The notes beneath the pieces are model-generated. The model was given only the letters and a program-made list of their open reading frames with translations. It had not been told where the DNA came from and searched no databases. From the sequence record JN984867: 44,077 nucleotides of DNA. The stretch is one strand, 5' to 3'. Positions 2,025 to 39,085 of the stretch are shown piece after piece (within the stretch, counting starts at the first letter, position 1; every line of letters starts with the position of its first letter). A program made the position numbers and the translations under genes. The DNA is from Shigella phage EP23.

Positions 2025-3545
2025 ATGACCGTTAACGTTGACAACCAGCACCCACTCTATGCGCGCATCGCGCCAGAGTGGAAAATGATTCGCGATTGTG
2101 TAGCAGGGGAGCGCGCCGTGAAGGCGTGCGGACCATTGTATCTGCCACACCCAGCCAGCGGCGACACCACAGACCCGAAATCGCGTGCGCGCTATAAGGC
2201 ATATAAGCAACGCGCTGTCTTCCTGAACGCCACCGCCCGCACACTGAATGCCTTGTTAGGCGTCGCCTTCGCCAAACCGGTGAGTATGGACCTTTCCGGG
2301 GCAATGGCTGACCTGATCGAAGACGTAGACGGCAGCGGGATGCCCCTGGCGCAACTCCTGCGCGGCGCTATGTCGGAAGTGCTGCAATCGGGCCGCGCAG
2401 GCTTTATGGTGGACTATGACCGCCAGGCGCATTTTGACGAACTGGGTAACGTAGTGCCGCAGACAGCCGCTGAAATGGCGGCACACCGCCCGCTTATCCG
2501 CCTGTATACGGCTGAACAGATCATCAACTGGCGGCAGACCCACGGGGTCGACACGCTAATCGTGCTGAAGGAAACGGACGAAATCAGCACCGAAGACCAG
2601 GACGACTTCGCAAACCACGAGGTGACCATCTGGACCGAGCTTCGCATGATTGACGGCAAGGCACACGCCCGCCGCTGGTTTTACAATGCGGACACGTCAG
2701 AAGTGCAAATGGACTTGCCGCGGGGATTCACCCGAACCGACCTTGTTCCACTGGTGGATGCTGACGGTAACGCGCTTACTCAACTGCCATTTTGCTGGTG
2801 TGGTGCTGTGGACAACAACGCGACGCCGGACGCCGCACCGCTGGCGGATATTGCATCCATCAACATTAAGCACTACAACGCCGAAGCAGACGTCGCCGAG
2901 ATTGCGCACATTGTGGGCCAACCTACACTTATTGCGACCGGTCTTACCCAATCATGGGCTGATAAAAACCTGAAGGGTGGCATCGCACTAGGCGCGACTA
3001 AGGGCGTTATCCTGGGCCAGAACATGGACGCTAAACTGCTTCAGGCTGAGGAGAGAAACCTGTCAGTTGCGCTGTGTGAGCGACGCGAATTGCAAATGGC
3101 TAAACTGGGCGCGGCCCTGGTCGAGAAGGGGACCGCACCTAAGACGGCAACTGAAGCGGCCTACGATGCGCAGACTGATAACAGTATCCTGTCACTGATT
3201 GCCGGTAACGTTGAGAAGGCATTCAACCGTGCGCTGCAAATCGTCAAACTGTTCACTGGCGACACCGCAGATCAACGCGTAACGCTGAATAAGTTCTACA
3301 CCGAAATCACGGTTGACGCACAGCTTATGACCGCGATGATGGCTGGTGTGCAGACCGGTACGGTCCGTCTGGCGGACTTTATCAAGTGGATGATGGCCCA
3401 GGGCGTCATTGATGACTCGCAAACCGTTGAGCAGGTGGAAGACGAATTGCGAAATCAGAATCCATTGCCTCAAATGTCCCCGGATGCGGTAGAATCTACC
3501 GAAGAAGACCCGGACAAGGTAGCGGACAATGGCGAAGACAATTAA
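2025..3545 (+). CDS. portal protein
   Basis: 506 aa ORF following terminase, acidic C-terminal tail, typical size and position. Confidence 0.8.
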   Translation: MTVNVDNQHPLYARIAPEWKMIRDCVAGERAVKACGPLYLPHPASGDTTDPKSRARYKAYKQRAVFLNATARTLNALLGVAFAKPVSMDLSGAMADLIEDVDGSGMPLAQLLRGAMSEVLQSGRAGFMVDYDRQAHFDELGNVVPQTAAEMAAHRPLIRLYTAEQIINWRQTHGVDTLIVLKETDEISTEDQDDFANHEVTIWTELRMIDGKAHARRWFYNADTSEVQMDLPRGFTRTDLVPLVDADGNALTQLPFCWCGAVDNNATPDAAPLADIASINIKHYNAEADVAEIAHIVGQPTLIATGLTQSWADKNLKGGIALGATKGVILGQNMDAKLLQAEERNLSVALCERRELQMAKLGAALVEKGTAPKTATEAAYDAQTDNSILSLIAGNVEKAFNRALQIVKLFTGDTADQRVTLNKFYTEITVDAQLMTAMMAGVQTGTVRLADFIKWMMAQGVIDDSQTVEQVEDELRNQNPLPQMSPDAVESTEEDPDKVADNGEDN

Positions 3546-28355: not shown

Positions 28356-28589
28356 TTATTCCGCCTTTTTCCAGACTTCAGTTTCACTATCCCAGTTCCT
28401 CTTTGTGGCGTCGTAGTTGGTGGCGTGTCCGACGTGGACACCGGTAGCCCGGAAGCTCTTAAATTTTTGCCAGCACACCGTCAACGGCAGTGGGTAATTT
28501 AGGCCCGCGATAAACCACACGCGATCGCCTGGTTTACATTCGCCCAGCTTGGTGAGTCGGTAATGTTCTTTCATCGTCATGTCTCCCAA
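28356..28589 (-). CDS. hypothetical protein
   Basis: 77 aa ORF. Confidence 0.35.
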   Translation of the reverse strand: MGDMTMKEHYRLTKLGECKPGDRVWFIAGLNYPLPLTVCWQKFKSFRATGVHVGHATNYDATKRNWDSETEVWKKAE

Positions 28590-28617
28590 AAATGGCGGGA
28601 CAAGCCCGCCGTATTAA

Positions 28618-28791
28618 TTATTTTTGTTCTGCACGGTAGCGGCGCTGCCGTTCGCGCTCTTTCTTATTGCGGCACGATTTGCACTCTGCCCGATACCCGT
28701 CTGGACTGCGCGCAGTCTTACCGGTGTATTTGTGGAACTGGGATAGCGGCTTTACACAGCCGCAATTACTACAACGTTTTTCTTCAATCAT
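28618..28791 (-). CDS. small zinc-ribbon protein (CxxC...CxxC)
   Basis: MIEEKRCSNCGCVKPLSQF...YRAECKSCRNKKERERQRR; start at internal ATG 28791. Confidence 0.4.
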   Translation of the reverse strand: MIEEKRCSNCGCVKPLSQFHKYTGKTARSPDGYRAECKSCRNKKERERQRRYRAEQK

Positions 28792-28831
28792 CTCTAAAAT
28801 CCTCGATATGGCTAACCGGCACACTATACCG

Positions 28832-29110
28832 CTATGCGACCAATTCAGCAACCAATAAATCGCAGTCGGATATGTTGTCGATAACGCGAACGTCAGCACC
28901 GCGGCGGGCCATTCGCTCATGTTCACGTACCTGGTGCGGCTTCGGTTTTCCTCCGGGGCGCTTCACTTCGACGAACACTATTTTGCCGTTGATGATAATA
29001 ATCAGGTCGGGCGCACCTGCGCGCCCCTCCCATGCCAGTTTTCGGCAGAATCCGCCAACATCTTTCACCCGTCTCATCAGGTGGCTTTGAATCTTGCCTT
29101 CTGGTGTCAT
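28832..29110 (-). CDS. VRR-NUC domain nuclease (PD-(D/E)XK)
   Basis: GAPDLIIIINGKIVFVEVKRPGGK core; start ATG 29110 overlapping polymerase stop. Confidence 0.55.
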   Translation of the reverse strand: MTPEGKIQSHLMRRVKDVGGFCRKLAWEGRAGAPDLIIIINGKIVFVEVKRPGGKPKPHQVREHERMARRGADVRVIDNISDCDLLVAELVA

Positions 29111-32100
29111 TACTTGCGGTAGCGATACATGCAATCGCCCTCTGCGGCAAGTGGGAAGCCTTTCGCCCAAACCGGCAGGTCGCACATCAGCGCGCACAAC
29201 TCCTCGGTTGTGTAGTCGTCGGTATCCGGCACTTCGGTTATCAGCTCATCGTGTACGGAAAGTACGATCTCATACCCCGCAGCTTCAACGCCAGGCATGG
29301 ACCATGCGAGAATATCGCGGCACAACGCCTGTACGATGTTTTCCGTCAGTTTGCCGCCGTAGGTATACTGGAATCCCCACTGGCGCGTCGTCTGATTCTC
29401 GCCCTGATATTTAATGCGTGTGCTGGTGCGCTTCTTGCCGGTGTCTTCGTCGATCTCGGTCGTGACAGACAGCGCGATGCCAGGGTAGCTCATGATGCGC
29501 CCTGACGGCAACTCAATTTTAAGCCACCACCCCGCCGCGTTCGGGTCGTCGCGCTCCTCGTCGAAGGTCGGGTCATGCTTCGCCTTCGTTCGAACAATTT
29601 TGAGCGCTTTCCTGCCATCCGGGCGAACGTTCGCGCCAGCCCAGTACGCTTTGCCCGGATTGCGGATCGCGCAGAGCACCGCGTCCTCCAGTTCGGCCCA
29701 AAAGGCTACCGTCATCGGGTGAGACTCACGCCACATACGTTTGATCGCGTCACACGTCAGCCACACGTTTTTCGGCAGTATGTAAGTTGGGCGCTCGTCT
29801 TTCTTGCCAGGCTTCGGCGGGCGCTTCTCCTCGTTAATGCGAGCGTACTCATAACCCCGCTTCGCCGCCGCCCAAATGTGATCCGGGAATGTGCCCTTCA
29901 TGACGTCAGCCATAGTGTAAAGGTCGAGGCCCAGGTTTTTAGCGAACTGCAAGAACGCCGCGACGCCGCCACCATAGCCCAGGCCAAGCTCGCAGTTATG
30001 CGCCACCAGAAAACCAGACTTAGACGCAATAAGGAACCGGTTTCCGTCTTCCACATCAATCAGGTCGTAAACCGGCTCGCAATAGGTTAACTTCCCGTTC
30101 CAGTTCAGCAATGCGGGTAAGGGCTTCATCGTACTTTCTCTGAAGCTCGGGCACGCTGCGCCGGTTACGGCAGTTTTCCGAACGGCTGACAAACCGAAGG
30201 TTTCCAGGCTCATAGTCGCCGTCTGTATCGATCCTGTCCATTTCGAAGTCTGGCTTATCCCAGCCGTCCAGCGTTTGAACGTAGAGAAGAAACGACCTTT
30301 TATCTCTCTTCCATTCGTCACATACGGCAATCCCACGACCGCCGTAGTTTTTATACCCTTTGGCGCGGGGGTTTGTCGTTCGTGATATTGCCGCTGACAG
30401 CCGGTTGAGTAGCCGCGTTCTGTGCGCATCGTCTGGCATTGCGTCATCGTAGCAAAAATACTGTTTACGATACCGCTTTGTCGCTTCAATTGCGCAGAGG
30501 TTGCATTGGGATGTTTTACCCCTTCGGACGTTGTCATACCCGACGCGTCCTGGCATCGCTCCGCAATCACATTGGGCCAGCAGTTGTCTGTGACCCTGTC
30601 GTTTTGGTAATTCGCGCAGGATAACCAGGCGTCCATACCTCTCGCCAGGGCGCGGACCATCGTGCACCTGTCTGAAACGAGTTGCCTTGCCTCCTTCCAT
30701 GAATGCGTCAAGATTTTGTGGTCTTCTGTCATCAAGACCCCGTCCACGTCTATCACTGGTTTCCACCCCATAAGGTGCGCGCCTTTTGTACTCACCCATT
30801 TTTCGCCGTTCCATACTTTATCCGTTGATGTTACGGCCATAATATCCTTGAACCCGCCATTGGTCAATACTTGGGTATGGCGGTGCAAGCAAGCCTTACC
30901 GATCTGGCGTAAGTCCTTGCGGTTGGCTTTAATGTAATCCGGGTCAAGGCCGAACATCTTACCGGCAGTCTCGCAATAGATATCGCGACCGGCCTTAAAG
31001 ACCATTAACGCTGTTTTCTCGCCAGCGATCCAGGCAAGTCCACGCCCTTCCACATTGGAGTAGTCCGCTACGACAAACTTCTTGCCCTTCGCCGGAATAA
31101 TGCACCCGCGAACGGTCGAGGCCGTTAGCTTCGATATGTCATACGCCCAGTGTGCGGTCCCGCGTAACAGGGAGTTGATGCCGTTGGTGAGCATGTGCGA
31201 CCGGACCCAAAACGAGACGTCGCTTTCACCCTCGCGGCGTTTAATCTTCCCTTCGTGGTCGTCGCTGTACTCGCCACGCGCCAGGTTTTGAGGCTGGAAG
31301 CCTTTGCCCGCCCAGCGCAGCGTGCGCTTTGCGCCGCCATACTGAAGACACCCACGGCGGCGACCATCTGCGGATAAGCCGTTAACTAGCGGATTGTACT
31401 TAGTCGATGCCGTTGATGACGCCCCGAGGCGCATTTCGATAAGCGCTTTGCCTTCGTCGGGGAAGTCCGGGTCTTCAAGCAGGTCGTTAAGCGTGGATTT
31501 CTGCGCGTTGTGGATCGTGAACGCCGGGGCGATATCACGCAGGATTGGCAGGAAGTCATTGCCTGTCAGCTTACCGCCAAATCGCTCCCAGGCTTCTTCC
31601 TTCAATTCTTCCTTATGCGCCTGCACCGCTTTGATCGCGGCGTTCGCCAGGTCAACGTCGACGTAGAAGCCGCGGTCGTTAATCAACTGGTCGATGAGCA
31701 GGATTTCATCTTCCTTAGGCGAGTTTCCCCAGTCCGGTATGCGCCAGTAGACTTCACGCATTGCGATAATATCCAGCGCGGCATAGCGCAGAAATTTGGC
31801 CCATTCTTCCGGGTGAGTCTCGCGAGTGTAGCGGCGGATTTTGTAGGTCTTAGGGGTAGGCTTACAGAATCGGTTAATCAGCGCCTTGCCTGCCTTATCC
31901 TTCGCGTGCTCTGCGTCAACGCCCAGAACCTGGCACTGCATATCGAGGCTACCGGGCAGCGCGTGGCGAAAGGCCATAATCATAGTGTCTTCGATCTGGC
32001 TTACCGGCAGGTCAATACCCCACTTCTCGCGGATAACCAGGCGGTCAAACAGGAGGCCGTTAGCCATCACTATTTTAGCCTTCTTGCGGGATACCCGGCG

Positions 32101-32298
32101 GAGCGCCTTGCGCAGTTCACGCGGCATTGTGGGGGATTCAGTGGCATCCCATGTCTGCACGCGGCCCTCGTCTATGGCGTAGGTGCAAATCATAATCTCT
32201 GTGGTTGGGTGCTCCGCGTAGGCGTACGCCCCAACTTTCTTCAGGTCCACCCCGCTAAATGTCTCGGTGTCGAGAAACAGGCGTTCGAAGTCTTTCAT
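29110..32298 (-). CDS. family A DNA polymerase with 3'-5' exonuclease domain, interrupted by an intein in motif B
   Basis: Exo motif FLDTETFSG, motif A ADYSNVEGR, motif C LSVHDEL; motif B split as RQIGKA / intein / CELGLGYGG. Confidence 0.9.
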   Translation of the reverse strand: MKDFERLFLDTETFSGVDLKKVGAYAYAEHPTTEIMICTYAIDEGRVQTWDATESPTMPRELRKALRRVSRKKAKIVMANGLLFDRLVIREKWGIDLPVSQIEDTMIMAFRHALPGSLDMQCQVLGVDAEHAKDKAGKALINRFCKPTPKTYKIRRYTRETHPEEWAKFLRYAALDIIAMREVYWRIPDWGNSPKEDEILLIDQLINDRGFYVDVDLANAAIKAVQAHKEELKEEAWERFGGKLTGNDFLPILRDIAPAFTIHNAQKSTLNDLLEDPDFPDEGKALIEMRLGASSTASTKYNPLVNGLSADGRRRGCLQYGGAKRTLRWAGKGFQPQNLARGEYSDDHEGKIKRREGESDVSFWVRSHMLTNGINSLLRGTAHWAYDISKLTASTVRGCIIPAKGKKFVVADYSNVEGRGLAWIAGEKTALMVFKAGRDIYCETAGKMFGLDPDYIKANRKDLRQIGKACLHRHTQVLTNGGFKDIMAVTSTDKVWNGEKWVSTKGAHLMGWKPVIDVDGVLMTEDHKILTHSWKEARQLVSDRCTMVRALARGMDAWLSCANYQNDRVTDNCWPNVIAERCQDASGMTTSEGVKHPNATSAQLKRQSGIVNSIFATMTQCQTMRTERGYSTGCQRQYHERQTPAPKGIKTTAVVGLPYVTNGREIKGRFFSTFKRWTAGISQTSKWTGSIQTATMSLETFGLSAVRKTAVTGAACPSFRESTMKPLPALLNWNGKLTYCEPVYDLIDVEDGNRFLIASKSGFLVAHNCELGLGYGGGVAAFLQFAKNLGLDLYTMADVMKGTFPDHIWAAAKRGYEYARINEEKRPPKPGKKDERPTYILPKNVWLTCDAIKRMWRESHPMTVAFWAELEDAVLCAIRNPGKAYWAGANVRPDGRKALKIVRTKAKHDPTFDEERDDPNAAGWWLKIELPSGRIMSYPGIALSVTTEIDEDTGKKRTSTRIKYQGENQTTRQWGFQYTYGGKLTENIVQALCRDILAWSMPGVEAAGYEIVLSVHDELITEVPDTDDYTTEELCALMCDLPVWAKGFPLAAEGDCMYRYRK
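29995..30891 (-). mobile_element. intein (299 aa) in DNA polymerase motif B
   Basis: Insert starts with Cys (codon 30889-30891), ends ...LVAHN followed by Cys (+1); Hint-like blocks CLHRHTQVLTNGG, TEDHKIL, VYDLIDVEDGNRFLIASKSGFLVAHN; excision restores R-x3-K-x3-LG-x2-YG. Confidence 0.8.
30056..30814 (-). CDS. HNH homing endonuclease encoded in an alternative frame inside the intein
   Basis: YGRLVIL...CDCG...RGKTSQCNLC and GYKNYGGRGIAVCDEW...DRIDTDGDYEPGNLRFVSRSENCRNR match phage HNH/His-Me finger proteins; frame differs from polymerase (30814 mod 3 = 1 vs 32298 mod 3 = 0); true start may be an internal Met (~30700). Confidence 0.7.
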   Translation of the reverse strand: MERRKMGEYKRRAPYGVETSDRRGRGLDDRRPQNLDAFMEGGKATRFRQVHDGPRPGERYGRLVILRELPKRQGHRQLLAQCDCGAMPGRVGYDNVRRGKTSQCNLCAIEATKRYRKQYFCYDDAMPDDAHRTRLLNRLSAAISRTTNPRAKGYKNYGGRGIAVCDEWKRDKRSFLLYVQTLDGWDKPDFEMDRIDTDGDYEPGNLRFVSRSENCRNRRSVPELQRKYDEALTRIAELEREVNLLRAGLRPD

Positions 32299-32465
32299 TG
32301 CTTTATCCTCACTACGGCGTCAGCGCTGCCGATCATGGAGAAGATGCCGTCGGACAGGGCGATCTCTTCGCCGTTGTTGCGAATCTCGGCAACTGTGAAA
32401 TATTCCCCCAGTAGCTTGGACCATACTTGCATTCCGACTTTTACTTCGCTGGCTTTAATACGCAT
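32295..32465 (-). CDS. small protein (56 aa) translationally coupled to DNA polymerase
   Basis: ATG 32465 after AGGA; stop TGA overlaps polymerase ATG (ATGA); translated by hand, not in ORF track (below size cut-off). Confidence 0.35.
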   Translation of the reverse strand: MRIKASEVKVGMQVWSKLLGEYFTVAEIRNNGEEIALSDGIFSMIGSADAVVRIKQ

Positions 32466-32523
32466 TTTTCATTGTCCTGTTAAAAAGCCCGCATTAAGCG
32501 GGCTTGAATAGTGGGCTTTGCCC

Positions 32524-33198
32524 TTAACGGCGGCGACGTTTACGTGGCGCTTCGTCTTCGTCGTCGTCTTCGTCATCGTCATCACGACGTTTTGACTTTT
32601 TGGACTTACGCGGGCTTTCATCTTCGTCATCGTCGCCCAGGTCTTCGTCGGAACATGAAGACCCGCCACCGCCGAAGGCTTCGCCGTCATCACGGAAGCG
32701 CATACCCAGCAGACCACAGCCTAAGCCTTTGCCGTTGGTATTGTTCCAGGCCCAAATATCTAAGGAAACGTTGCAATAGCAACCGGAATAGATTTCCTTC
32801 CCTTCGATTTCGTCGCCGTCGATGGTCAGACCCTGCTCCGTCTGCTTCTCGCCTTCGGAAGTCTGGATGATCGGCTGTTTGAACGATTTGGCGTTGATGT
32901 ACAACATGCCTTCGAATTCTTCGGTTACTTCGTCGCGCTCGTCACCGTCGCGAACTGCGCATTCCTTAGAATCCTGGGCGTAGTGGCGGTCCATCCACTT
33001 ATCAGCATTCTTCTCGGATTTCAGCTTGTCGGTTAGCACTGCGCGCGCTGCCGCTTCCACTTTGTCCACCTGCGGATCTTCTTTATCAAGAAGAATCACT
33101 GCACGGTATGCCGGTTTTTGTCCATCCTGTTTAGGGGTATCACGTTCCCAAATTTTAAGGAAACATACGCGCACATTTTTCAGGTTGACTTTAGCCAT
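32524..33198 (-). CDS. ssDNA-binding-like protein (DUF2815-like, putative) with poly-acidic/basic C-terminal tail
   Basis: ATG 33198 after GAGGA; C-terminus DEDLGDDDEDESPRKSKKSKRRDDDDEDDDEDEAPRKRRRR; adjacent to Cas4-like nuclease and polymerase. Confidence 0.45.
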   Translation of the reverse strand: MAKVNLKNVRVCFLKIWERDTPKQDGQKPAYRAVILLDKEDPQVDKVEAAARAVLTDKLKSEKNADKWMDRHYAQDSKECAVRDGDERDEVTEEFEGMLYINAKSFKQPIIQTSEGEKQTEQGLTIDGDEIEGKEIYSGCYCNVSLDIWAWNNTNGKGLGCGLLGMRFRDDGEAFGGGGSSCSDEDLGDDDEDESPRKSKKSKRRDDDDEDDDEDEAPRKRRRR

Positions 33199-33254
33199 TT
33201 TCCAATTCCTCATTTTCACATGTATCGGGGTTATTGGAAGCCACCCCGTTCGGC

Positions 33255-33285
33255 TTGGTTGCTAATTTACTTGGTTGCGCCTGAG
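33255..33285 (-). promoter_or_regulatory. pair of TTGGTTGC motifs 18 bp apart upstream of SSB-like gene
   Basis: cttggttgctaatttacttggttgcg read directly. Confidence 0.35.
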
Positions 33286-33288
33286 CGG

Positions 33289-33531
33289 TCAAGCATTTTC
33301 ATTAAAAAGATTTCGGGTAACGTAGTTGGTCGCGTTCTCGATCCAGCTTAACGGCGGGCGGTTGATGTTCTTCTCCACCCAATCGACGGCAGCTTCGCTA
33401 TAGCCGTCATCCAGCCAGCGGGTCGGATGTCTAATCATCCATGCCACCATTAACACGCCTTGCACACAATGCAGGATAAAGCCCAGCGCGCCGATAACAA
33501 ACATCAATAAGATTGCGAATACTTTATTCAT
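33289..33531 (-). CDS. small membrane protein
   Basis: 80 aa, hydrophobic segment AILLMFVIGALGFILHCVQGVLMVAWMI. Confidence 0.4.
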   Translation of the reverse strand: MNKVFAILLMFVIGALGFILHCVQGVLMVAWMIRHPTRWLDDGYSEAAVDWVEKNINRPPLSWIENATNYVTRNLFNENA

Positions 33532-34954
33532 TGCTTAAGTCCTCGTCAGTAGCTACAGACCACGCAGGGCGCGGGTCGTCGATGGGTGCTAATACCGGTT
33601 TAGCTGGTGCGCGCGTGATTTTATCACACAGCTTCGCCCATACTTTCGGCTTCTCGTCCTTCAATACCTTCTCGGCATCAGTAGGGCTGAGTAATGTTTC
33701 TTTGTACATCACATCGCGCTTGATCCGGGCCTTCGTGAAGATTTCAATCACTTCGCTTTCGTCCGCCCACTTGCGAATCCCTTCCTTACCTGCAACCATC
33801 TTGAGGCCCAGCGATTCGCCGTCGCCCGCCATCACAGCCTTGAATACCGCGGACTCGATAGCCTTGATGTGCTGGCGCATTGCGTCCAGGCCTTCATAAG
33901 CCTTGCGCAGTTCCGCGGCGGTCATAGCGCCGGGGGCCGCTTCTTTCTTGCCACGCTTCGCACGTCGTGCCGCTTTGCGGGCTTCGCGGGCCATATTGCG
34001 GTCGTGATTGGCGCATTCTTCCTCTGTCGCAATACTCACGTCGTCGCCCAGGTCTTCGTCTGTTGCCGTTGGTGGGGTCATCGTGCCGATTGCAGCCTTA
34101 GCGCGGGCGCTACACTGATCCGCAAATCTGCACCACTGACACGCATCAACGCTCGGTCGGAAGTCGGCGCGGGTGAGTCCCTTTTTTCCGCGGGAGTACG
34201 CTTCCAGGGCGGCGATAGCACGCTTGGACGCAAACTTAGCGAATATCTCCAGGGCTTCTACCGAAATATCCCACTCCGACGCCCCGCCGCAATACGGCTG
34301 GAAGATAACAAGGCGCACGGTTGTAATGTCGTACATAGTTTTCAGCTTGCGCAGCAAGCCCAGCGCATACAACATAAGCTGTTTGTTTTCTTTCGCCTCG
34401 ACCTTATGCCGCCCCGTCTTCAGGTCGCCAACAATCAGCATGTACGTGCCGTCGGTCTTCTTCATGACCATGACCATATCGGCAGTACCGAACGTCTTAA
34501 CCCGGTTGCCGTCGATCTCGAAGCCTGAGTGAAGGACGCGGGTCAGATCGGCGCGCATCTCAAGCTGAACAAACTCCGCCACTTCGAGGAGCGGTCGCCA
34601 GTGGTCGATGTACGCGTCGCACTGTTTCACCATGTCGTCGTTGACCAGTACGCCGCCTTTCGGTGCTTTCGGGTGGGCCTTTACCGGCCCCTTACCTTCG
34701 TTCTCTACGTAGCACCCTTTGTACGTCTTAGCGGTTATCAGCTTCTCCCCGGCAATGATGCGGTTTAGCACCACTTCAGATACGGTGTGCATACTCGTAC
34801 CGTTAATCGCCGCTTGCCCGGATTCGTTCGGGATATCTTTTTCCACCACCAGGGCGGCGGGACACCCCATCCATTTTTTAGCACCGGATGGGCCAAGTAA
34901 TGAGTGTTCCGTATTACTACCGGATTGCGTTTTACGTTTTGGTTTAATCGCCAT
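33524..34954 (-). CDS. PD-(D/E)XK exonuclease, Cas4/RecB-like with C-terminal Cys cluster (DUF2800-like)
   Basis: IVGDLKTGRHKVEAKENKQLMLYALGL (D-x-K, QxxxY) and DACQWCRFADQCS cysteine motif; 476 aa. Confidence 0.6.
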   Translation of the reverse strand: MAIKPKRKTQSGSNTEHSLLGPSGAKKWMGCPAALVVEKDIPNESGQAAINGTSMHTVSEVVLNRIIAGEKLITAKTYKGCYVENEGKGPVKAHPKAPKGGVLVNDDMVKQCDAYIDHWRPLLEVAEFVQLEMRADLTRVLHSGFEIDGNRVKTFGTADMVMVMKKTDGTYMLIVGDLKTGRHKVEAKENKQLMLYALGLLRKLKTMYDITTVRLVIFQPYCGGASEWDISVEALEIFAKFASKRAIAALEAYSRGKKGLTRADFRPSVDACQWCRFADQCSARAKAAIGTMTPPTATDEDLGDDVSIATEEECANHDRNMAREARKAARRAKRGKKEAAPGAMTAAELRKAYEGLDAMRQHIKAIESAVFKAVMAGDGESLGLKMVAGKEGIRKWADESEVIEIFTKARIKRDVMYKETLLSPTDAEKVLKDEKPKVWAKLCDKITRAPAKPVLAPIDDPRPAWSVATDEDLSNE

Positions 34955-35133
34955 TATTCCACCCGTGTAAACTGGACAATTACATATTTCACATTCGCCA
35001 AGCCCGCTTTTTCGACACGGCTGCGCACTTCATGCTGCGCATCGGTCCAGCACATCGAGGCGTCCTTGTTAACAACAAGAAAAGAGAAATGGTCGTTTAA
35101 TTCGTGGCAAGTTGCCAGCACGAAAAATTTCAT
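34954..35133 (-). CDS. small protein (59 aa), translationally coupled
   Basis: ATG 35133, stop TAA overlapping nuclease ATG (TAATG); hand-translated. Confidence 0.3.
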   Translation of the reverse strand: MKFFVLATCHELNDHFSFLVVNKDASMCWTDAQHEVRSRVEKAGLANVKYVIVQFTRVE

Positions 35134-35384
35134 TATTTTGTCTCCCAGCGGTCAATTGTTTTTGCTTCGGATGCAACGGCGAAGCGAACATATTCCAGAT
35201 TGGAGTCAGCCCAAATATAAAAATCGGGGTTAGTAAAGGTGGTGCGCTTAATTTGCGCGGGGGTGTTGCGGCGTTTATCTATTACGGCAACGCGGGATTG
35301 AAAGCTGCCGATGCGTTCGAATAGCCAATAGTACGGGCGCTGGTCGCGGGAATCCACCGCCTCGATTAGCGTGAATCGTGCCAT
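35133..35384 (-). CDS. hypothetical protein
   Basis: 83 aa ORF with GAGGA RBS. Confidence 0.4.
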   Translation of the reverse strand: MARFTLIEAVDSRDQRPYYWLFERIGSFQSRVAVIDKRRNTPAQIKRTTFTNPDFYIWADSNLEYVRFAVASEAKTIDRWETK

Positions 35385-35396
35385 TGTCTCGTCCTC

Positions 35397-35424
35397 TAAA
35401 AAGAGGCCCGCTAATATGCGGGCC
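35397..35424 (-). terminator. intra-operon terminator / attenuator
   Basis: On minus strand GGCCCGC-atatta-GCGGGCC hairpin followed by CUUUUU. Confidence 0.45.
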
Positions 35425-35426
35425 GG

Positions 35427-35552
35427 ATAATATTAATCTTCACCGCCGAGTTGTTTATAAACCTCGTCCGGGTCGTCGCCTCTTTCTTCGCAGAAGGCGG
35501 TGAATGCCGCCCAATTTTCTGCTATGAAATCGAGCATGATTCTCATTTCATA
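35427..35552 (-). CDS. small acidic protein (41 aa)
   Basis: ATG 35552; hand-translated MDYEMRIMLDFIAENWAAFTAFCEERGDDPDEVYKQLGGED. Confidence 0.25.
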
Positions 35553-35562
35553 GTCCATGATA

Positions 35563-36081
35563 TTAATCTTCCAGTTCGAAATAAGTTTCGACGATTTCTT
35601 TTAGCTCTTTGTGGAAGTCTTCGACGTCGTCATCTTCCAGCTTAGCGATTGATTTGATCTCGAACGATTCCAGAAGGTCGTCGAATTCGTCGTTCGCATC
35701 GTCGTCATCGCCACCGGCGATAATCGCGGCATACTGTTTGATTTCGTCGCGCATCTCCGCCAGCGGATCGGCATCTTTCTTACCTTTGCCTTTCGCCGGT
35801 GCTTTCTTAGACTTAGCCGGTTTTTCGTCTTCGGCATCGGCATCGTCGTCGTCATCTTCTACGACTTCTTTTTTGGCCTTACCTTTCGCCGGTGCTTTTT
35901 TGGTTTTCGCCGGGGCTTCGTCTTCAGCGTCGTCATCTTCTACGACTTCTTTTTTGGCCTTAGACGGCTTCTTGTCTTCCTGTTTACCAACGGCAGCGCC
36001 AACGGTTTCATAATGCTTAGCGATGATTTCCAGTGCTACTACGCCGCGAGTGATCAGGTTTACGATTTGCTCAAACATGGT
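35563..36081 (-). CDS. highly charged repeat protein (alternating poly-acidic and KKAPAKGK blocks), first gene of leftward early operon
   Basis: Start ATG 36081 (MFEQIVNL); internal ~70-bp tandem DNA repeat near 35780-35960; track ORF extends to 36306 through the leader. Confidence 0.5.
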   Translation of the reverse strand, partial: TMFEQIVNLITRGVVALEIIAKHYETVGAAVGKQEDKKPSKAKKEVVEDDDAEDEAPAKTKKAPAKGKAKKEVVEDDDDDADAEDEKPAKSKKAPAKGKGKKDADPLAEMRDEIKQYAAIIAGGDDDDANDEFDDLLESFEIKSIAKLEDDDVEDFHKELKEIVETYFELED

Positions 36082-36274
36082 ATATCTCCGATTGGTTAAG
36101 TTTAGGTGTCGACCATTAACTTCGTCGGTGGCCTTAACATAGTGCCAGGTTACGCGTTCTCCCGTTCGGGTAGTGGACCTGGTTATATAATCACGGTTGG
36201 GAATCCTGACACTTCGATCCGGCCCCTGCGTTGCCCCTCTCCAGTTTGCGTCCTGCATCCTGTCGACGAGGTGA

Positions 36275-36303
36275 ATATTAGATTGGTTGCAGAAGGGAGT
36301 CAA
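36275..36303 (-). promoter_or_regulatory. leftward promoter TTGACT-N17-TAATAT with TGCAACCAA in the spacer
   Basis: Read on minus strand: TTGACTcccttctgcaaccaatcTAATAT; ~190-nt leader before ATG 36081. Confidence 0.55.
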
Positions 36304-36313
36304 CAACTAATTT

Positions 36314-36350
36314 AAAAAAAAAAAGCGCCGAAGCAAAATGCGACGGCGCT
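36314..36350 (-). terminator. strong rho-independent terminator on minus strand in divergent intergenic region
   Basis: AGCGCCG...CGGCGCT hairpin followed (minus strand) by ~11 U. Confidence 0.65.
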
Positions 36351-36372
36351 AACCAATAAGAGACAATGAGAC
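36314..36372 (-). ncRNA. candidate ~55-nt small RNA (promoter TTGAAA-N16-TAATAA to terminator)
   Basis: Minus-strand promoter-like hexamers at ~36380-36407 immediately upstream of the terminator; no coding potential. Confidence 0.25.
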
Positions 36373-36420
36373 GGGAGTATTATTACACGCGTGCGCGCCC
36401 GTTTCAATATCCCAAAGGAG

Positions 36421-36449
36421 TTGACACCCTGCGGTTTTAGGTGTAGTTT
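36421..36449 (+). promoter_or_regulatory. rightward promoter TTGACA-N17-TAGTTT
   Basis: Consensus -35 read directly upstream of gene at 36481. Confidence 0.55.
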
Positions 36450-36480
36450 CATTGGTCATTAACCAACCGGAGACAGAATA

Positions 36481-36810
36481 ATGAATATCAACGACGCAAT
36501 CGAAATGCTAACGAAGACTGTCTGCAGTGAGACTAGCCGGTCCTGGGCGTATACCGATGCCGTGGGGGCGGTGCTATTTGAAATCGAACGTCTGCGACTT
36601 ACCGAAAAAGAATTGCGCGCGAAGCTGGAATTACTCAACGGTACGGCAGCCAGCAAGCTGCAAAAGCACAATGAAGAAATGGAAGAATACAAAAAACAGG
36701 TTATCCGTTTGCGCGCCGAGGGAAAATCCTGGGCGATGATCGCTGAGTTGACAGGAATTAATCAGAGCACCGTGCGCTCCTGGGTACGCAATAACAAAAC
36801 TTCGAAGTAA
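36481..36810 (+). CDS. HTH DNA-binding protein (putative transcriptional regulator)
   Basis: C-terminal KSWAMIAELTGINQSTVRSWVRN helix-turn-helix; GGAGA RBS; first rightward gene. Confidence 0.5.
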   Translation: MNINDAIEMLTKTVCSETSRSWAYTDAVGAVLFEIERLRLTEKELRAKLELLNGTAASKLQKHNEEMEEYKKQVIRLRAEGKSWAMIAELTGINQSTVRSWVRNNKTSK

Positions 36811-36820
36811 GGCAACGGCA

Positions 36821-39085
36821 ATGAGCTTAATTAAATTCGCTGTAACACGACCCGCTAAAAAAGGCGAAAAAGCCAGGGCGGAAAACTTCCAGATGACCAC
36901 CGATGAATTTTTCGAATTTATCAATGACGCGAAAGAAATATCATCGGTGCATATCAACAAGACCGAGGATAAAGCGGAGTATGCGCGCCGCAAGCGTAAG
37001 GCCGATGGCATCGTAGCGTATACCAGTGACGGCTTACGCCGCAAGACCAGCGCGGTGGACCGCTCGATCCTGTTCTTTGATATTGACCGCACCGACACTC
37101 GCACCTTACGCCGCTGCCGTAAGGCGTTCATTGACGCGGGTCTGGAACACGTATTCCACACAACCACCGGCGACCGCCACCCGCTTAAAGGCGGCACGCG
37201 TTGCGCTCGCTTCCTGGTACTCACTGATAAGCCGGTCCCGGCTGAAGACCTGGGCCGTGTCCAGTATGCGCTATTACATCAACTTGGTCTGTCGGATGTG
37301 GACTTCGACGATTGCACGAAAGACACAAACCGCCTGATGTACCTGCCGCACCAGCAATCGGTTATTAAGTGCCACTACGGCAAACGTGCCCGCGTCCGTC
37401 GTCTGCTTCGCCTGGCGGATACGCTTGGCGTGGAGAAGGAAGAAGTACGCCGCGAGCTTACCCAGGGCGACGACGCAGTGGCGGACGGGATTCTGGACTG
37501 GTGCTTCCAGGCAGGATTTGAGGAGTTATCTTCCGGTCGCGGTTATGAAGTGCCATGCCCGAACGAACATCTGCACAGCGGCGAAGGGTCGACGGCTATC
37601 ATGGTCAAGGATGGCGAGATCCGTTTCAAGTGTATGCACACAGGCAACGAGTGTTGCTCTGAGCTAAATAGACACCAGCACCTGGCGCTACGTCTTATCG
37701 GGATACCGGACCACCTGAACGTCGAGCCGCACAACATGTCGCGTAAGCAAATCGCCGCCATCCTGCCAGGTCTGGACGACGAGGAAGTCGAATCCTTATA
37801 TGATCATATTGTTGATGCAGTTGGCGACGGCGAAGAATACGGCGTGTGCACCGATGCGGATCTGGATAACGAGCCGGTCGCACTATTCAGTAAGCACGAC
37901 CCGATCATCGAAGGCCTGGTCAACTTCAAATCGACCTGGTACATGGCTGGCGAGTCGAACATCGGTAAATCGTTCTACGTGCTGGGCCAAATGGGCGCGG
38001 TTGCCGCGGGGATTCCGTTCGGCGGTGCGAAGGTCGTCCAGTCTCATTGCTTCTATTTCGACGCGGAAGGTGGCGAAGCCTCCAACCAGCGTAAGGAAGC
38101 ATTGCAGATCAAATATGAGCACGACCTGGACAAGCTGCACATTATTGACCTGCAATCACGCGGCTGGGATATCACCAGCAAATCAGGCTTGCGTGAAGTT
38201 ATCAGCTTCATCAACCGCACCGCTAACGGCGAGCCGGTTGGCCTGGTGGCGTTCGACTCACTCAACCAGACTGTTGCGCTGCGGTCCGCCGATGCAAAAC
38301 CGTTCGACGAGAACAACGCCAGCGATATGGGCGAAGTGGTCAAAGCGCTGAAGGCCATTGCGGAAAATACAGGCGGCAGTGCGGGCGTCATCCACCACCC
38401 GGCGAAAGGTGCAAACGGCCGCAGATCTCCCCGTGGGTCCGGCGCGCTGCATGGTGCTGTCGATTCTGCGTTCTTCCTGGAGCAACCGGACGACAACCAG
38501 CCAGGTCAATTGAACCTGTATCACGAAAAGGCACGTAACGGCATCAAGCAAGCGCCGCGCGGCTTCGTCCTGCTCAAGTGCAAGGTTAAGGTGGATCTCC
38601 GCAAGTCCGAAGCGTTCGAAGCCCACCAGTCCACCAGCACCGGGCCAGACTTCGGCGATGTGGTTGCCGGTTGGGACGTCAAACCAATTGCGTCCACCCC
38701 GCGCGACGAGACTCTATACCTCGTACCGGTAGCCCTGGCACCGTTCGCGATAGAACAGGCGAAGGCGGCGGGCAAAGCCGCAGTTAAGGAAGAGAACACC
38801 GCCGGTCCGCGCAACGAAAAAGAGAAAGTGCTTTATGCGGCCCTGGAAAAACTGATGGCAGATAACCCTGACCATACTGGATTCAGTAAATCGGCAATTG
38901 TACGCCAGGCGGGACTCGCTAAGGGTGGCACTTCGACGAAGGCAATCGACGATATGGTCGAGCGCGGCGTGATTGGTTTCTATACAGACCCGCACACCGG
39001 GGCCATATATGGGTCGTCGAATTTAGTCATCAAATCGGAGATCCCCATAACGCTTTCGGCGACCGATGACGACCTGAAAGACTAA
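36821..39085 (+). CDS. DNA primase-helicase (prim-pol-like N-terminus plus RecA/DnaB-like ATPase)
   Basis: SILFFDIDRTD acidic motif, Cys/His cluster CPNEHLHSGEG...CMHTGNECC, Walker A GESNIGKSFYVLGQ; 754 aa. Confidence 0.75.
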   Translation: MSLIKFAVTRPAKKGEKARAENFQMTTDEFFEFINDAKEISSVHINKTEDKAEYARRKRKADGIVAYTSDGLRRKTSAVDRSILFFDIDRTDTRTLRRCRKAFIDAGLEHVFHTTTGDRHPLKGGTRCARFLVLTDKPVPAEDLGRVQYALLHQLGLSDVDFDDCTKDTNRLMYLPHQQSVIKCHYGKRARVRRLLRLADTLGVEKEEVRRELTQGDDAVADGILDWCFQAGFEELSSGRGYEVPCPNEHLHSGEGSTAIMVKDGEIRFKCMHTGNECCSELNRHQHLALRLIGIPDHLNVEPHNMSRKQIAAILPGLDDEEVESLYDHIVDAVGDGEEYGVCTDADLDNEPVALFSKHDPIIEGLVNFKSTWYMAGESNIGKSFYVLGQMGAVAAGIPFGGAKVVQSHCFYFDAEGGEASNQRKEALQIKYEHDLDKLHIIDLQSRGWDITSKSGLREVISFINRTANGEPVGLVAFDSLNQTVALRSADAKPFDENNASDMGEVVKALKAIAENTGGSAGVIHHPAKGANGRRSPRGSGALHGAVDSAFFLEQPDDNQPGQLNLYHEKARNGIKQAPRGFVLLKCKVKVDLRKSEAFEAHQSTSTGPDFGDVVAGWDVKPIASTPRDETLYLVPVALAPFAIEQAKAAGKAAVKEENTAGPRNEKEKVLYAALEKLMADNPDHTGFSKSAIVRQAGLAKGGTSTKAIDDMVERGVIGFYTDPHTGAIYGSSNLVIKSEIPITLSATDDDLKD

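Follow-up and report, generated by a model that had tools for sequence, protein, structure and literature searches.

The adjacent nuclease and SSB genes of Shigella phage EP23 (sequence record JN984867) probably belong to the replication–recombination operon of a Dhillonvirus and, with the polymerase gene, make up the known duf2800-gp2.5-polA cassette. We regard this overall explanation, including the roles assigned to the proteins, a docking motif and an extension of the SSB tail, as likely. The arrangement of DUF2800 nuclease, gp2.5-like SSB and polymerase is already known from the literature and from RefSeq annotation, and the cassette is ordinary except for a shared TD(D/E)DL peptide and an SSB tail of alternating acidic and basic blocks. 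What we add to existing annotation is the observation of repeated acid/basic units in this tail and of a motif common to the SSB, the nuclease and the primase-helicase. The genes themselves offer little discovery value, as genes, families and arrangement are annotated in more than 100 near-identical phages and the cassette has been published.

The cassette and its surroundings

We analysed a window of 44,077 nt, the whole stretch of DNA available to us. The source phage is a Dhillonvirus (an HK578-like Escherichia coli siphophage), and the region is 90–96% identical to more than 140 sequenced phages, whose records name the cassette genes exonuclease, Gp2.5-like SSB/SSAP and polymerase. According to the ORF list, the nuclease (33524..34954) and the SSB-like protein (32524..33219) are both encoded on the minus strand, at the coordinates given in the earlier note. 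Downstream on the same strand lies a family A DNA polymerase (3'-5' exonuclease plus polymerase; 29110..32298; PF00476 match). The earlier note had placed the pair immediately upstream of the polymerase operon, which is correct except that a 56-aa ORF lies between SSB and PolA, and had guessed at a DUF2800/DUF2815/PolA cassette; families and arrangement are those (Pfam; PMC8093625). The 56-aa ORF (32295..32465, minus strand; PHROG 10102, function unknown, E = 2e-42) has a stop codon that overlaps the PolA start and is 96% identical to SECphi4 QJI52527. Between nuclease and SSB there is an 80-aa ORF with a hydrophobic N-terminal segment (33289..33531, minus strand; PHROG 11211, function unknown, E = 3e-53), which overlaps the nuclease stop by 8 nt and is annotated as hypothetical in relatives.

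In the published description of the duf2800-gp2.5-polA module, DUF2815 is classed with the Gp2.5 SSAP family (PMC8093625). The EP23 locus shares with this module the two Pfam families, the gene order, the strand, the adjacency of a family A polymerase and the lack of a separate ssb gene; it differs in the 80-aa and 56-aa ORFs inserted between the three genes and in the intein carried by the polymerase. Of 85 loci spanning 32–98% SSB identity, 82 have the nuclease directly upstream of the SSB. The Gp2.5 SSAP family is said to have been recognized by Lopes et al. in 2010, and DUF2800 was reportedly assigned to the PD-(D/E)XK nucleases by Steczkiewicz et al. in 2012. A promoter and terminator scan of positions 28500–37000 gave counts at shuffle level, and the operon structure is therefore read solely from the way in which the genes are oriented and overlap.

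The nuclease and the SSB core

Profile matches and the predicted fold identify the 476-aa product as a PD-(D/E)XK nuclease of Cas4/AddB type, in which the catalytic residues are complete and four cysteines are conserved. It matches Pfam DUF2800 (PF10926) with an E value of 2e-66 (225 bits against a cut-off of 21) and PDDEXK_1 with 2e-8; residues 17–463 cover positions 1–368 of the 368 in the DUF2800 profile, an end-to-end family match. PHROG 69, named ‘exonuclease’, is matched at 7e-107, and RefSeq uses the same name in slur05. Comparison with PDB sequences gave no significant match for the whole protein (the sole match was a chance flagellin, E = 0.6). The AlphaFold model, for its part, matches the folds of Cas4-family ACE1, the AdnAB and AddAB nuclease domains, RecE, MGME1, EXO5 and Cas4 SSO0001, and lambda exonuclease is also among the matches. 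These profile and fold matches bear out the PD-(D/E)XK identity proposed in the earlier note.

The catalytic core comprises D159, D177-L-K179 and Q192...Y196 (34367..34480; all nuclease features are on the minus strand), with the translation checked, and corresponds to the D...(D/E)xK and QxxxY residues of RecB-family nucleases. These five residues, together with E132, are present in 150–151 of 151 diverse DUF2800 representatives. CX2CX5C is the cysteine spacing of Cas4 and AddB, and EP23 has the same arrangement of one N-terminal cysteine followed by this cluster. Cys31 (34862..34864), the presumed N-terminal ligand of a 4Fe-4S cluster, is a cysteine in 148 of the 151 representatives, the remaining three rows being gaps, and is invariant in the alignment of relatives. 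The other three presumed ligands, C272-x2-C275-x5-C281 (CQWCRFADQC; 34112..34141; translation checked), are cysteines in 151, 151 and 150 of the 151. Over the D...DxK...QxxxY positions and the four cysteines taken together, conservation is 145–151 of the 151. The earlier note had described a C-terminal CxxC...C motif; the cluster exists, but it lies in the middle of the protein, at the C-terminal edge of the nuclease core. Going by the Cas4, AddB and EXO5 homologues, the protein would bind a 4Fe-4S cluster and have metal-dependent 5'-3' exonuclease activity; its presumed polarity and substrate are likewise those of homologues.

About 195 residues follow the cysteine cluster; they form a charged, disordered linker and then a C-terminal domain that is conserved. 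After the cluster, the motif scan located an internal TATDEDLGDD motif (34040..34069) in a low-confidence, probably disordered stretch (pLDDT below 50 for residues 268–318), in which A297, D301 and L302 are invariant in the alignment of relatives. The linker, acidic then basic (...EEECANHDRNMAREARKAARRAKRGKKE...; 33926..34039; sequence checked), shows indels among relatives and low to moderate pLDDT. The C-terminal domain (aa 344–465; 33560..33925) corresponds to DUF2800 profile positions 252–368 and is modelled with a pLDDT of about 75; a profile of aa 340–476 gave only chance matches to PDB sequences (E about 0.5), and Pfam gave DUF2800 only. The protein ends in an ATDEDLSNE motif (33527..33553), whose D-x-D-L is conserved in clade A (clades A and B were assigned by locus groups).

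In comparison with Cas4 (SSO0001, PDB 4IC1), the AddB and AdnA nuclease domains, EXO5 and MGME1, the PD-(D/E)XK core, QxxxY and the N-terminal Cys plus CX2CX5C are shared, whereas DUF2800 has an extra 120-aa C-terminal domain and two acidic motifs and is linked neither to CRISPR nor to a helicase. The Cas4-like fold and cysteine pattern might suggest a function connected with CRISPR or anti-defence, of the kind proposed for Cas4 carried by phages, instead of one in phage DNA metabolism. We consider this highly improbable, given that the nuclease is fixed beside SSB and PolA in 82 of 85 loci, belongs to a large family of its own (9846 DUF2800 clusters at 50% identity, E<=1e-3), carries both the additional domain and a motif common to replisome proteins, and has no CRISPR context anywhere in the window. 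A literature search found no biochemical study of DUF2800 proteins; in this very large family of phage nucleases, mutagenesis has clear targets in the cysteine cluster, the invariant residues and the acidic peptide conserved at the C-terminus.

The SSB-like ORF encodes 231 aa if counted from a GTG. An ATG at 33198, with GAGGA about 8 nt upstream, is the more probable start and gives 224 aa; P-GXEC-L2P5 is annotated likewise. Profile and model show this 224-aa product to be an OB-fold protein of the Enc34/T7 gp2.5 type whose tail is disordered. Its core (aa 1–171; 32686..33198, minus strand), of the DUF2815/Enc34-type, T7 gp2.5-like kind, matches PF10991 (Enc34_ssDNA-bd; E = 4e-32, 111.6 bits against a cut-off of 26) and PHROG 112 (E = 7.5e-55); RefSeq and PHROG both name it ‘ssDNA binding and annealing protein’. 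Sequence matches in the PDB are 4jg2, 4klk and 5odj. In the AF2 model the core has a pLDDT of about 90, with helices 43–59 and 62–72 after strand 30–38, and the best fold matches are 5odl (Enc34, TM 0.74 normalised to target), 4klk, 4jg2 and 1je5 (T7 gp2.5). The OB barrel with a long capping helix after strand 2, a hallmark of T7-type SSBs (PMC5686142), is thus present in the model, and the SSB identity suspected earlier agrees with both kinds of match.

ORF6 of Enterobacter/Hafnia phage Enc34 binds ssDNA, and its acidic tail confers ssDNA specificity (PMC5686142). The EP23 protein shares with it (5ODJ/5ODK/5ODL), and with the DUF2815 structures 4JG2 and 4KLK, the Pfam family, the OB fold and the long helix after strand 2, and like Enc34 it has a disordered tail that starts acidic; identity to Enc34 is about 21%. 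Two aromatic residues of Enc34, Trp150 and Tyr156, stack on ssDNA. In the 5odj profile alignment, with the residue mapping read by eye, Trp150 aligns with W149 (DIW) of the 224-aa SSB, a second W being at 151, and Tyr156 aligns with N. By analogy with Enc34 ORF6 and T7 gp2.5, the EP23 SSB would be expected to prefer ssDNA and to anneal it; annealing in vivo by DUF2815 proteins is an annotation transferred from T7 gp2.5. The SECphi4 orthologue (QJI52528) is 96% identical and has the same locus layout (SSB, 56-aa gene, PolA). It is a reported trigger of Retron-Eco8, as is T7 gp2.5 (Stokar-Avihail et al., preprint 10.1101/2022.08.27.505566), and has in this way already been used experimentally as a defence-system trigger. 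Dhillonviruses are standard phages of defence research (BASEL and SECphi collections), and a map of SSB core, motif and repeats helps in the interpretation of escape mutants.

Adjacent, co-oriented genes for an exonuclease and an annealing protein are a mark of the two-component recombinase class, and EP23 has this arrangement. It is conceivable, though in our estimate somewhat less than an even chance, that the pair acts mainly as such a recombinase (exonuclease plus SSAP, like lambda Exo/Beta or RecE/RecT), serving homologous recombination and concatemers and not fork replication. DUF2815 belongs to the Gp2.5 SSAP family and the module has been described in those terms (PMC8093625), the SSB carries an annealing-protein name in RefSeq and PHROG, RecE and lambda exonuclease are among the fold matches of the nuclease, and the annotations of the genus contain no second SSB or annealing protein. 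This last point cuts both ways, since the EP23 protein, as the only SSB in the genome, must serve replication. Moreover, T7 gp2.5 is essential for replication, the motif shared with the primase-helicase points to the replisome, and the two roles are compatible. The label ‘recombination-type’ given in the earlier note was drawn from homology, and a role in replication appears at least as likely.

In the replication–recombination operon that we favour, the nuclease would, by homology, hold a 4Fe-4S cluster and work from 5' to 3', resecting either DNA ends or 5' flaps. The exposed single strands would be coated, and possibly annealed, by the SSB, and the coated strands extended by PolA and the primase-helicase. 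The set may work much like T7 gp6, gp2.5, gp5 and gp4 in replication, primer removal and concatemer-forming recombination. Common to EP23 and the T7 replisome (gp2.5, gp4, gp5, gp6) are the gp2.5-like SSB fold, a family A polymerase that lacks a 5' nuclease domain and a separate exonuclease. Unlike the FEN-like gp6, the EP23 nuclease is of Cas4/RecB type and presumably an Fe-S enzyme.

The SSB tail

The C-terminal tail (32527..32685, minus strand) consists of GEAFGGGG, SDEDL and two acid-block/basic-block units, and ends in PRKRRRR. From residue 172 onwards pLDDT falls to 35–50 and AF2 models the chain as disordered. The sequence GGSSCSDEDLGDDDEDE-SPRKSKKSKRR-DDDDEDDDEDE-APRKRRRR contains 20 acidic and 13 basic residues among 47, with a net charge of -7. 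It is a disordered acidic C-terminal tail in variant form, since the acidic blocks alternate with basic blocks. The earlier note had read a 40-residue run of Asp/Glu ending in RKRRRR; the ending is right, but the run is two block units. The purely acidic Enc34 tail (16 of 29 residues D/E), in contrast, has neither the alternation nor the RKRRRR end. Charge segregation is extreme: kappa is 0.70 in EP23 against 0.13 +/- 0.07 in shuffles, a value reached by 0 of 1000, and across EP23 and its relatives it ranges from 0.5 to 0.7 against about 0.12 (0 of 1000).

Unit number varies among relatives: two in EP23, three in Sloth and SECphi4, four in slur05 and PaulFeyerabend. Over lengths of 44–84 aa and one to four basic blocks, the net charge stays between -3 and -9; clade-B tails have 18–22 aa and a net charge of -6 to -8. 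Many lineages, with core identity as low as 44%, retain the first motif, the block pattern and the PRK/RPRRRR ends. Among the sequences compared, the acid/basic pattern is the norm in a large clade of enterobacterial siphophages and not peculiar to EP23. Its description as unusual therefore stands relative to T7, Enc34 and the distant clade, and does not stand within the enterobacterial siphophages. Acid/basic units like those of the tail also occur in the nuclease linker and in a neighbouring 171-aa protein of the same operon.

The tail might have a specific extra function, such as SSB self-association or condensates (replication foci), DNA bridging in annealing, or service as a DNA mimic that decoys host nucleases or the sensors of defence systems. 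The extreme charge segregation and the recurrence of similar units in the linker and the 171-aa protein would fit this, as would the protein–protein contacts made by C-terminal tails in crystals of Enc34, DUF2815 and T7 SSBs (PMC5686142) and the sensing of DUF2815/gp2.5-like SSBs by defence systems. We nevertheless find it doubtful: deletion of the T7 tail leaves Retron-Eco8 activation unaffected (PMC13402713), and the proteins of clade B, Enc34 and T7 function although they lack basic blocks. On the reading that we prefer, the repeats after the motif would form a nearly charge-neutral, expandable and flexible extension, giving a longer tail of the same net charge, with a further role in self-association or DNA bridging being possible.

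A motif common to SSB, nuclease and primase-helicase

One copy of the sequence [ST]D[DE]DL lies in the SSB tail, two lie in the nuclease, and a further one is C-terminal in the primase-helicase. The primase-helicase (AAA_25/RepA-like, AAA_25 E = 6e-19; RefSeq ‘replicative helicase-primase’) is divergently transcribed (36821..39085, plus strand), and motif scans place its terminal ...SATDDDLKD at 39056..39082 (plus strand). In the SSB, SDEDL (32638..32652, minus strand) opens the tail at a fixed position right after GEAFGGxG. A scan of all 279 ORFs of 50 aa or more in the six frames of the window gave five occurrences of D[DE]DL: two in the nuclease, one each in the SSB and the primase-helicase, and one elsewhere. 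In clade A, D-x-D-L is present in 39 of 39 SSB tails and within the last 12 aa of 37 of 37 nucleases. Of 1598 complete ORFs in clade-A loci, only nucleases (32) and primase-helicase-sized proteins (22) carry D[DE]DL at the C-terminus; the motif sits at the extreme ends of two proteins whose termini are otherwise non-acidic, and in the primase-helicase it is kept even where adjoining residues have diverged.

Clade B, the distant clade, has a phenylalanine version. All 45 nucleases end in a [DE]F[DE]D-type motif instead, and 43 of 45 SSB tails contain [DE][DE]F[DE], the other two having SDFDD or GDFDD; the clade-B primase-helicase homologues found, which are weak matches, carry no Phe-type motif at their ends. 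This co-variation is weaker than the counts suggest, because it amounts essentially to one Leu/Phe switch between two clades (phylogenetic non-independence). As for contact between nuclease and SSB, the shared, co-varying acidic motif gives an indirect hint. AlphaFold models of the SSB tail and the internal nuclease motif were of low confidence and gave no docked pose of the SSB motif on the OB core; the internal motif could be part of a cluster-bound fold instead of a free peptide.

We also considered whether slippage or unequal recombination in GA-rich DNA of low complexity gave rise to the repeat tail, which would then be no more than a tolerated spacer, and whether the shared D[DE]DL merely reflects acidic composition. 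Unit number changes between two, three and four among near-identical phages, database entries P0005 and P0008 have frameshifted SSB tails, and DxDL is more likely to arise by chance in acidic stretches. A 54-nt tandem unit is found in the tail DNA solely of relatives with four units, such as slur05; the EP23 tail DNA shows a weak 6-nt period only. Such an origin seems unlikely to us, since block pattern, ends and first motif persist to 44% core identity and net charge is confined to the range given above. Nor would composition explain the fixed place after GEAFGGxG and at extreme C-termini, the Phe switch in both clade-B proteins, or the absence of the C-terminal motif from any other ORF across 40 loci.

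Occurrence in nuclease, SSB and primase-helicase, with a Phe version in the distant clade, suggests instead a T7-like docking on a common hub. In T7, the gp2.5 tail, which ends in ...EEADEDGDF, interacts with polymerase and helicase (PMC10359462; PMC5686142). EP23 has the elements of such tethering: the SSB carries an acidic peptide anchored by a hydrophobic residue (SDEDL), and the helicase-primase (...ATDDDLKD) and the nuclease (...ATDEDLSNE) carry similar ones. The T7 gp4 helicase-primase reportedly carries an acidic C-terminal peptide (Hamdan et al. 2005 PNAS), to which that of the EP23 primase-helicase is similar. An acidic tail with a hydrophobic anchor is common to the EP23 SSB and T7 gp2.5 (...DEDGDF); the T7 anchor is a terminal Phe, whereas that of EP23 is a Leu followed by two or three more residues. 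EP23 differs further in that the nuclease also has the motif and the SSB tail has basic blocks.

From its distribution, the motif would be a docking peptide tethering SSB, nuclease and primase-helicase to one basic hub, for which the polymerase, the DNA-binding cleft of the SSB or both are the likeliest candidates, in a manner resembling the acidic, Phe-ending tails of T7 gp2.5 and gp4. A stronger form of this model, which we put forward tentatively and with less than even confidence, is that in this clade of enterobacterial siphophages replisome and recombination nuclease are assembled through this one motif, with the SSB, the nuclease (through two copies) and the primase-helicase competing for a single hub, and that the polyampholyte SSB tail of one to four units tunes reach, self-association or condensation on ssDNA. 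If true, the T7 acidic-tail mechanism would have a modular and evolvable variant here, of a kind not previously reported for DUF2800/DUF2815 systems. A motif that is shared and co-varies among the three proteins offers a testable model of replisome cohesion.

Lastly, the polymerase gene is interrupted by a 299-aa intein: EP23 PolA is 98% identical to slur05 PolA on either side of an exact 299-aa insertion. A group I intron, as annotated for Sodalis phage SO-1, was rejected, as there is no Rfam match, the insertion is exactly in frame, and the boundaries (Cys...His-Asn|Cys) and the codon-position pattern of substitutions fit an intein. The intein contains an HNH endonuclease gene encoded out of frame. 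Sequencing error was dismissed as the source of this arrangement, the same architecture being found in independent records and in copies down to 51% HNH identity.

The nuclease, the SSB and their gene neighbourhood

The 476-residue protein encoded at 33524..34954(-) belongs to the Pfam family DUF2800, which it matches over its whole length (E 2e-66), and also matches PDDEXK_1 (E 2e-8); its PHROG label is 'exonuclease', the identical name given in RefSeq for slur05. In an alignment of 29 homologues (57-97% identity), residues C31, C272, C275, C281, D159, D177, K179, Q192 and Y196 are invariant. Together with H17, H56 and E132, they are present in 145-151 of the 151 sequences when the best 150 matches (30-71% identity) are taken. 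The family has 9846 members at E<=1e-3 among 1.84 billion cluster representatives. The D...(D/E)xK and QxxxY motifs are those of RecB-family nucleases, and one N-terminal Cys followed by CX2CX5C is the arrangement that ligates a 4Fe-4S cluster in Cas4 and AddB.

In the AlphaFold model of the nuclease, confidence is high over residues 20-265, low over 268-318 and moderate in a C-terminal domain at 344-465. The solved structures that match this model best are Cas4-family ACE1 proteins and the nuclease domains of AdnA/AdnB and AddA/AddB (E 2e-6 to 1e-3), with RecE, MGME1, EXO5, Cas4 SSO0001 and a type I-C Cas4 in the same range. By sequence, no relative of the nuclease was found among solved structures, and the C-terminal domain matched only DUF2800 itself in PDB-sequence and Pfam profile searches. 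The motifs, conserved cysteines and fold matches support the proposal in the earlier note of a Cas4-like nuclease with an Fe-S-type cysteine cluster. The cysteine motif, which had been placed at the C-terminus, is CQWCRFADQC at residues 272-281 of 476 and marks the end of the nuclease core. By analogy with these enzymes, we infer both the 4Fe-4S cluster and the polarity of the nuclease.

The SSB is encoded by the ORF at 32524..33219(-), most likely from the ATG at 33198, which has GAGGA ~8 nt upstream and would give a protein of 224 aa. It belongs to PF10991, the Enc34 ssDNA-binding family formerly called DUF2815 (E 4e-32), and its PHROG label, 'Gp2.5-like ssDNA binding protein and ssDNA annealing protein', is shared by the slur05 RefSeq entry. 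Solved structures matched by sequence are 4jg2 and 4klk (DUF2815 proteins) and 5odj/5odk/5odl (Enc34 ORF6). In the AlphaFold model the core has a pLDDT near 90 and the tail is disordered from residue 172. The best fold matches are the Enc34 SSB with ssDNA (TM 0.74 relative to target), two DUF2815 structures and T7 gp2.5. Both ORFs lie where the earlier note had them, and the description of the second as SSB-like holds on the family match and the OB-fold structures; PD-(D/E)XK and OB-fold similarity are both present, in Pfam (PDDEXK_1 and PF10991) and in the fold matches.

Enc34 ORF6 binds ssDNA, and dsDNA as well once its acidic tail is removed (PMC5686142). The SSB is 96% identical to that of SECphi4, a Dhillonvirus with equal gene order. 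The SECphi4 protein activates the Retron-Eco8 defence, as does T7 gp2.5, and a SECphi4 mutant escaping Retron-Eco8 carries T56P in the SSB (preprint 10.1101/2022.08.27.505566). The triggering of defence by an orthologous SSB has, then, already been investigated. Within the genus Dhillonvirus, the annotations include no further SSB or annealing protein.

The stretch 32200-35200 has 149 full-length matches in phage records at 92-96% identity, nearly all of them Escherichia phages of the genus Dhillonvirus (Sloth, Teewinot, PaulFeyerabend/Bas15, slur05 and others). The nearest relative for the nuclease/SSB region is P-GXEC-L2P5 (PQ843332), whose record of 88,607 bp is ~2x the genome size of the genus and has the nuclease gene split into two CDS of 405 and 1110 nt; faulty assembly or a frameshift in that record is likely. 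Judging by composition and strand skews, the nuclease and SSB genes lie within a minus-strand gene block running from ~36400 to ~23000. In phages of both Gram-positive and Gram-negative hosts, annealing proteins of the Gp2.5 family have been described as usually encoded in a 'duf2800-gp2.5-polA module' with no separate ssb gene (PMC8093625). In agreement with this, a DUF2800 gene lies directly upstream of the SSB homologue in 82 of 85 loci that hold one (SSB identity 32-98%). Because of the described module and this count, we regard the nuclease, SSB and PolA set as a known and common arrangement, already annotated. Its earlier designation as a recombination-type module is too narrow, since this is the only SSB of the phage; replication and recombination roles are not exclusive.

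Two small ORFs are interspersed in the module. An 80-aa ORF with a hydrophobic N-terminal segment (33289..33531(-); PHROG 11211, unknown function) lies between nuclease and SSB, overlaps the nuclease stop by 8 nt and is kept in Dhillonviruses; the distant clade is without it, and there the nuclease and SSB genes abut. A 56-aa ORF (32295..32465(-)) lies between SSB and PolA, and its stop overlaps the PolA start codon. It belongs to a conserved PHROG family of unknown function and is 96% identical to SECphi4 QJI52527. A 56-aa SECphi4 protein, described as having no known function, was cloned in a defence-escape study whose text names neither the gene nor the defence system, and from gene order we take it to be the counterpart of this ORF.

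In the mechanism that we envisage, the nuclease would degrade 5' strands at ends, nicks or flaps, and the SSB would cover and anneal the exposed 3' strands. PolA, in which a 3'-5' proofreading domain is present and a 5' nuclease domain absent, would work with the primase-helicase to copy the strands. As in T7, these steps may lead to fork replication, removal of primers and recombination-dependent formation of concatemers.

Alternating charge blocks in the SSB tail

The tail had been described as a 40-residue run of Asp and Glu. It consists instead of two units in which a basic block comes after an acidic one: ...SDEDLGDDDEDE-SPRKSKKSKRR-DDDDEDDDEDE-APRKRRRR. Two units are also found in P-GXEC-L2P5, three in Sloth and SECphi4, and four in slur05 and PaulFeyerabend; in slur05 the tail DNA has a 54-nt tandem period, equal to an 18-aa unit. 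We compared 120 homologues with identities down to 44%, which come from Salmonella Jersey-like phages, Kagunavirus-like phages and numerous metagenomic contigs. In almost all, a conserved GEAFGGxG..D[DE]DL precedes alternating blocks, and the tails end in ...RPRRRRR or ...RRNYEDDEE. The tail is therefore unusual for an SSB, as had been suggested, but it is conserved in a large clade of enterobacterial siphophages that includes Dhillonvirus (clade A) and is no oddity of EP23.

The 39 clade-A tails are 44-84 residues long and have 12-28 basic residues in 1-4 blocks. For seven clade-A tails we calculated kappa, a measure of charge segregation, which was 0.50-0.70 compared with 0.11-0.14 in composition-preserving shuffles; the observed value was reached by 0 of 1000 shuffles for each tail. 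The net charge of these seven is -3 to -9. In distant loci with SSBs 32-39% identical (clade B), the tails are 18-22 aa long, have no basic residues and carry a net charge of -6 to -8. The T7 gp2.5 tail has 49 aa, 3 basic residues and a net charge of -19. The simplest reading is that roughly neutral units of acid plus base have been added to a short acidic tail, making it longer with its net charge unchanged.

Similar units occur elsewhere. The nuclease linker that follows an internal TDEDL motif (33926..34039(-)) has an acid-then-basic unit, ...EEECANHDRNMAREARKAARRAKRGKKE, and is an indel hot spot: relatives are 438-491 aa long, and some lack the insert or have another one. A 171-aa protein encoded at the head of this operon (35563..36078(-); PHROG 3127, unknown function) contains two KKEVVEDDD(A)EDE.PAK.KKAPAKGK acid/base repeats resembling the SSB tail units, and its N-terminus is hydrophobic. 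Its gene is 516-699 nt long in relatives and is followed by a terminator-like hairpin (35424..35405). In two database proteins, P0005 (phage vB_EcoS-22664B1) and P0008, the SSB tail switches into an alternative frame (32469..32717(-)), ...KTKRHVNVAAVKGKAHYSSPLNAGFL.GQ, probably because the tail DNA, which is repetitive and GA-rich, has undergone indels or was misread in sequencing.

A candidate docking motif in three replication proteins

At the start of the SSB tail stands SDEDL, which is ATDDDL in many relatives. In the nuclease, TATDEDLGDD closely follows the cysteine cluster and ATDEDLSNE forms the C-terminal end, and the divergently encoded primase-helicase (36821..39085(+)) ends in SATDDDLKD; among the peptides bearing the motif are GSSCSDEDLGDDD, PAWSVATDEDLSNE and ITLSATDDDLKD. 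A six-frame search of the window, covering 279 ORFs of 50 aa or longer, gives D[DE]DL five times, and four of these occurrences are in the SSB, the nuclease (twice) and the primase-helicase. Across 40 clade-A loci, D-x-D-L is present in 39/39 SSB tails and within the last 12 residues of 37/37 complete nucleases. The clade-A loci contain 1598 complete ORFs of 80 aa or more; those with a C-terminal D[DE]DL are exclusively nucleases (32) and proteins the size of the primase-helicase (22). The primase-helicase retains the motif even where the preceding residues have fully diverged.

At the 45 clade-B loci the motif has Phe in place of Leu, as ...[DE][DE]F[DE]D[LI]...DLV in the SSB and as ...SDFDDV... 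or ...DEFADV....DLV in the nuclease. This Phe type is present in 45/45 nucleases and in 43/45 SSBs, with two near variants, and the Leu type appears once in the nuclease and once in the SSB; the co-variation amounts to essentially one switch between two clades. Clade-B helicases, identified through weak homologue matches, do not carry the Phe motif. Most of 150 diverse DUF2800 proteins end acidic with Phe, often with a terminal DL[VIL], and the acidic C-terminal part of the 171-aa protein contains NDEFDDLL, resembling the Phe type.

In T7, the gp4 helicase-primase is said to have a Phe-ending acidic tail similar to that of gp2.5, and both tails reportedly bind basic loops of gp5. The gp2.5 tail ends in ...EEADEDGDF and contacts polymerase and helicase (PMC5686142, PMC10359462). 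When the Enc34, DUF2815 and T7 SSBs are crystallized, the tail of one molecule occupies the concave sheet of its neighbour (PMC5686142). On the basis of the motif distribution, the Leu/Phe co-variation and the comparison with T7 tails, we propose that [ST]D[DE]DL is a candidate docking peptide through which the SSB, nuclease and primase-helicase may all dock on one common basic site, which would be on the polymerase and/or the SSB core. In a non-exhaustive literature search, neither the shared motif nor the block-polyampholyte tail turned up as already described. Both refine the acidic-tail principle of T7 and do not constitute a new type of system, and the interest of the nuclease/SSB feature, which we consider low to moderate, rests on these details.

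The insertion in PolA

PolA (29110..32298(-)) has 1062 aa in the window compared with 763 aa in slur05, the difference being an exact 299-aa insertion (29995..30891(-)) placed in ...RQIGKA|CELGLGYGG. Position 1 of the insertion is Cys and its end reads His-Asn|Cys; judged by its sequence, it is a class 1 intein. Inside it, in the -1 frame, is a 252-aa HNH ORF (30056..30814(-); HNH endonuclease PHROGs, E 2e-47). We also considered a group I intron. No Rfam match was obtained for the window copy, and the in-frame Hint boundaries favour an intein. In Sodalis phage SO-1 (NC_013600; 1094..4282 and 2578..3336), RefSeq labels this same insertion a 'type I self-splicing intron' and annotates an HNH gene in it; this public annotation looks wrong.

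The 897-nt insert is found without indels in 164 phage records, of which ~150 are Salmonella phages at 84% identity. Substitutions between the window and Salmonella phage S55, counted at codon positions 1/2/3, were 6/8/19 in the intein frame at the 5' end (nt 0-240), 27/12/56 in the HNH frame in the middle (nt 240-780) and 1/2/13 in the intein frame at the 3' end (nt 780-897). At both ends, substitutions thus fall on third positions of the intein frame; in the middle, they do so in the HNH frame. The two frames are open throughout the insert, and the nested arrangement is kept in copies with HNH proteins only 69% and 51% identical. A sigma-70-like site inside the intein (30867..30839(-); TTGACC, 17 nt, TATTAT; 10/12 matches, in a scan with counts at chance level) lies ~25 nt upstream of the first ATG of the HNH ORF and is only a lead to a route for HNH expression. 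For actinobacteriophages, inteins whose homing endonuclease is encoded in a different frame were described in 2025 (preprint 10.1101/2025.01.02.630785; PMC11855218), and the PolA intein looks like a widespread example from proteobacterial phages.
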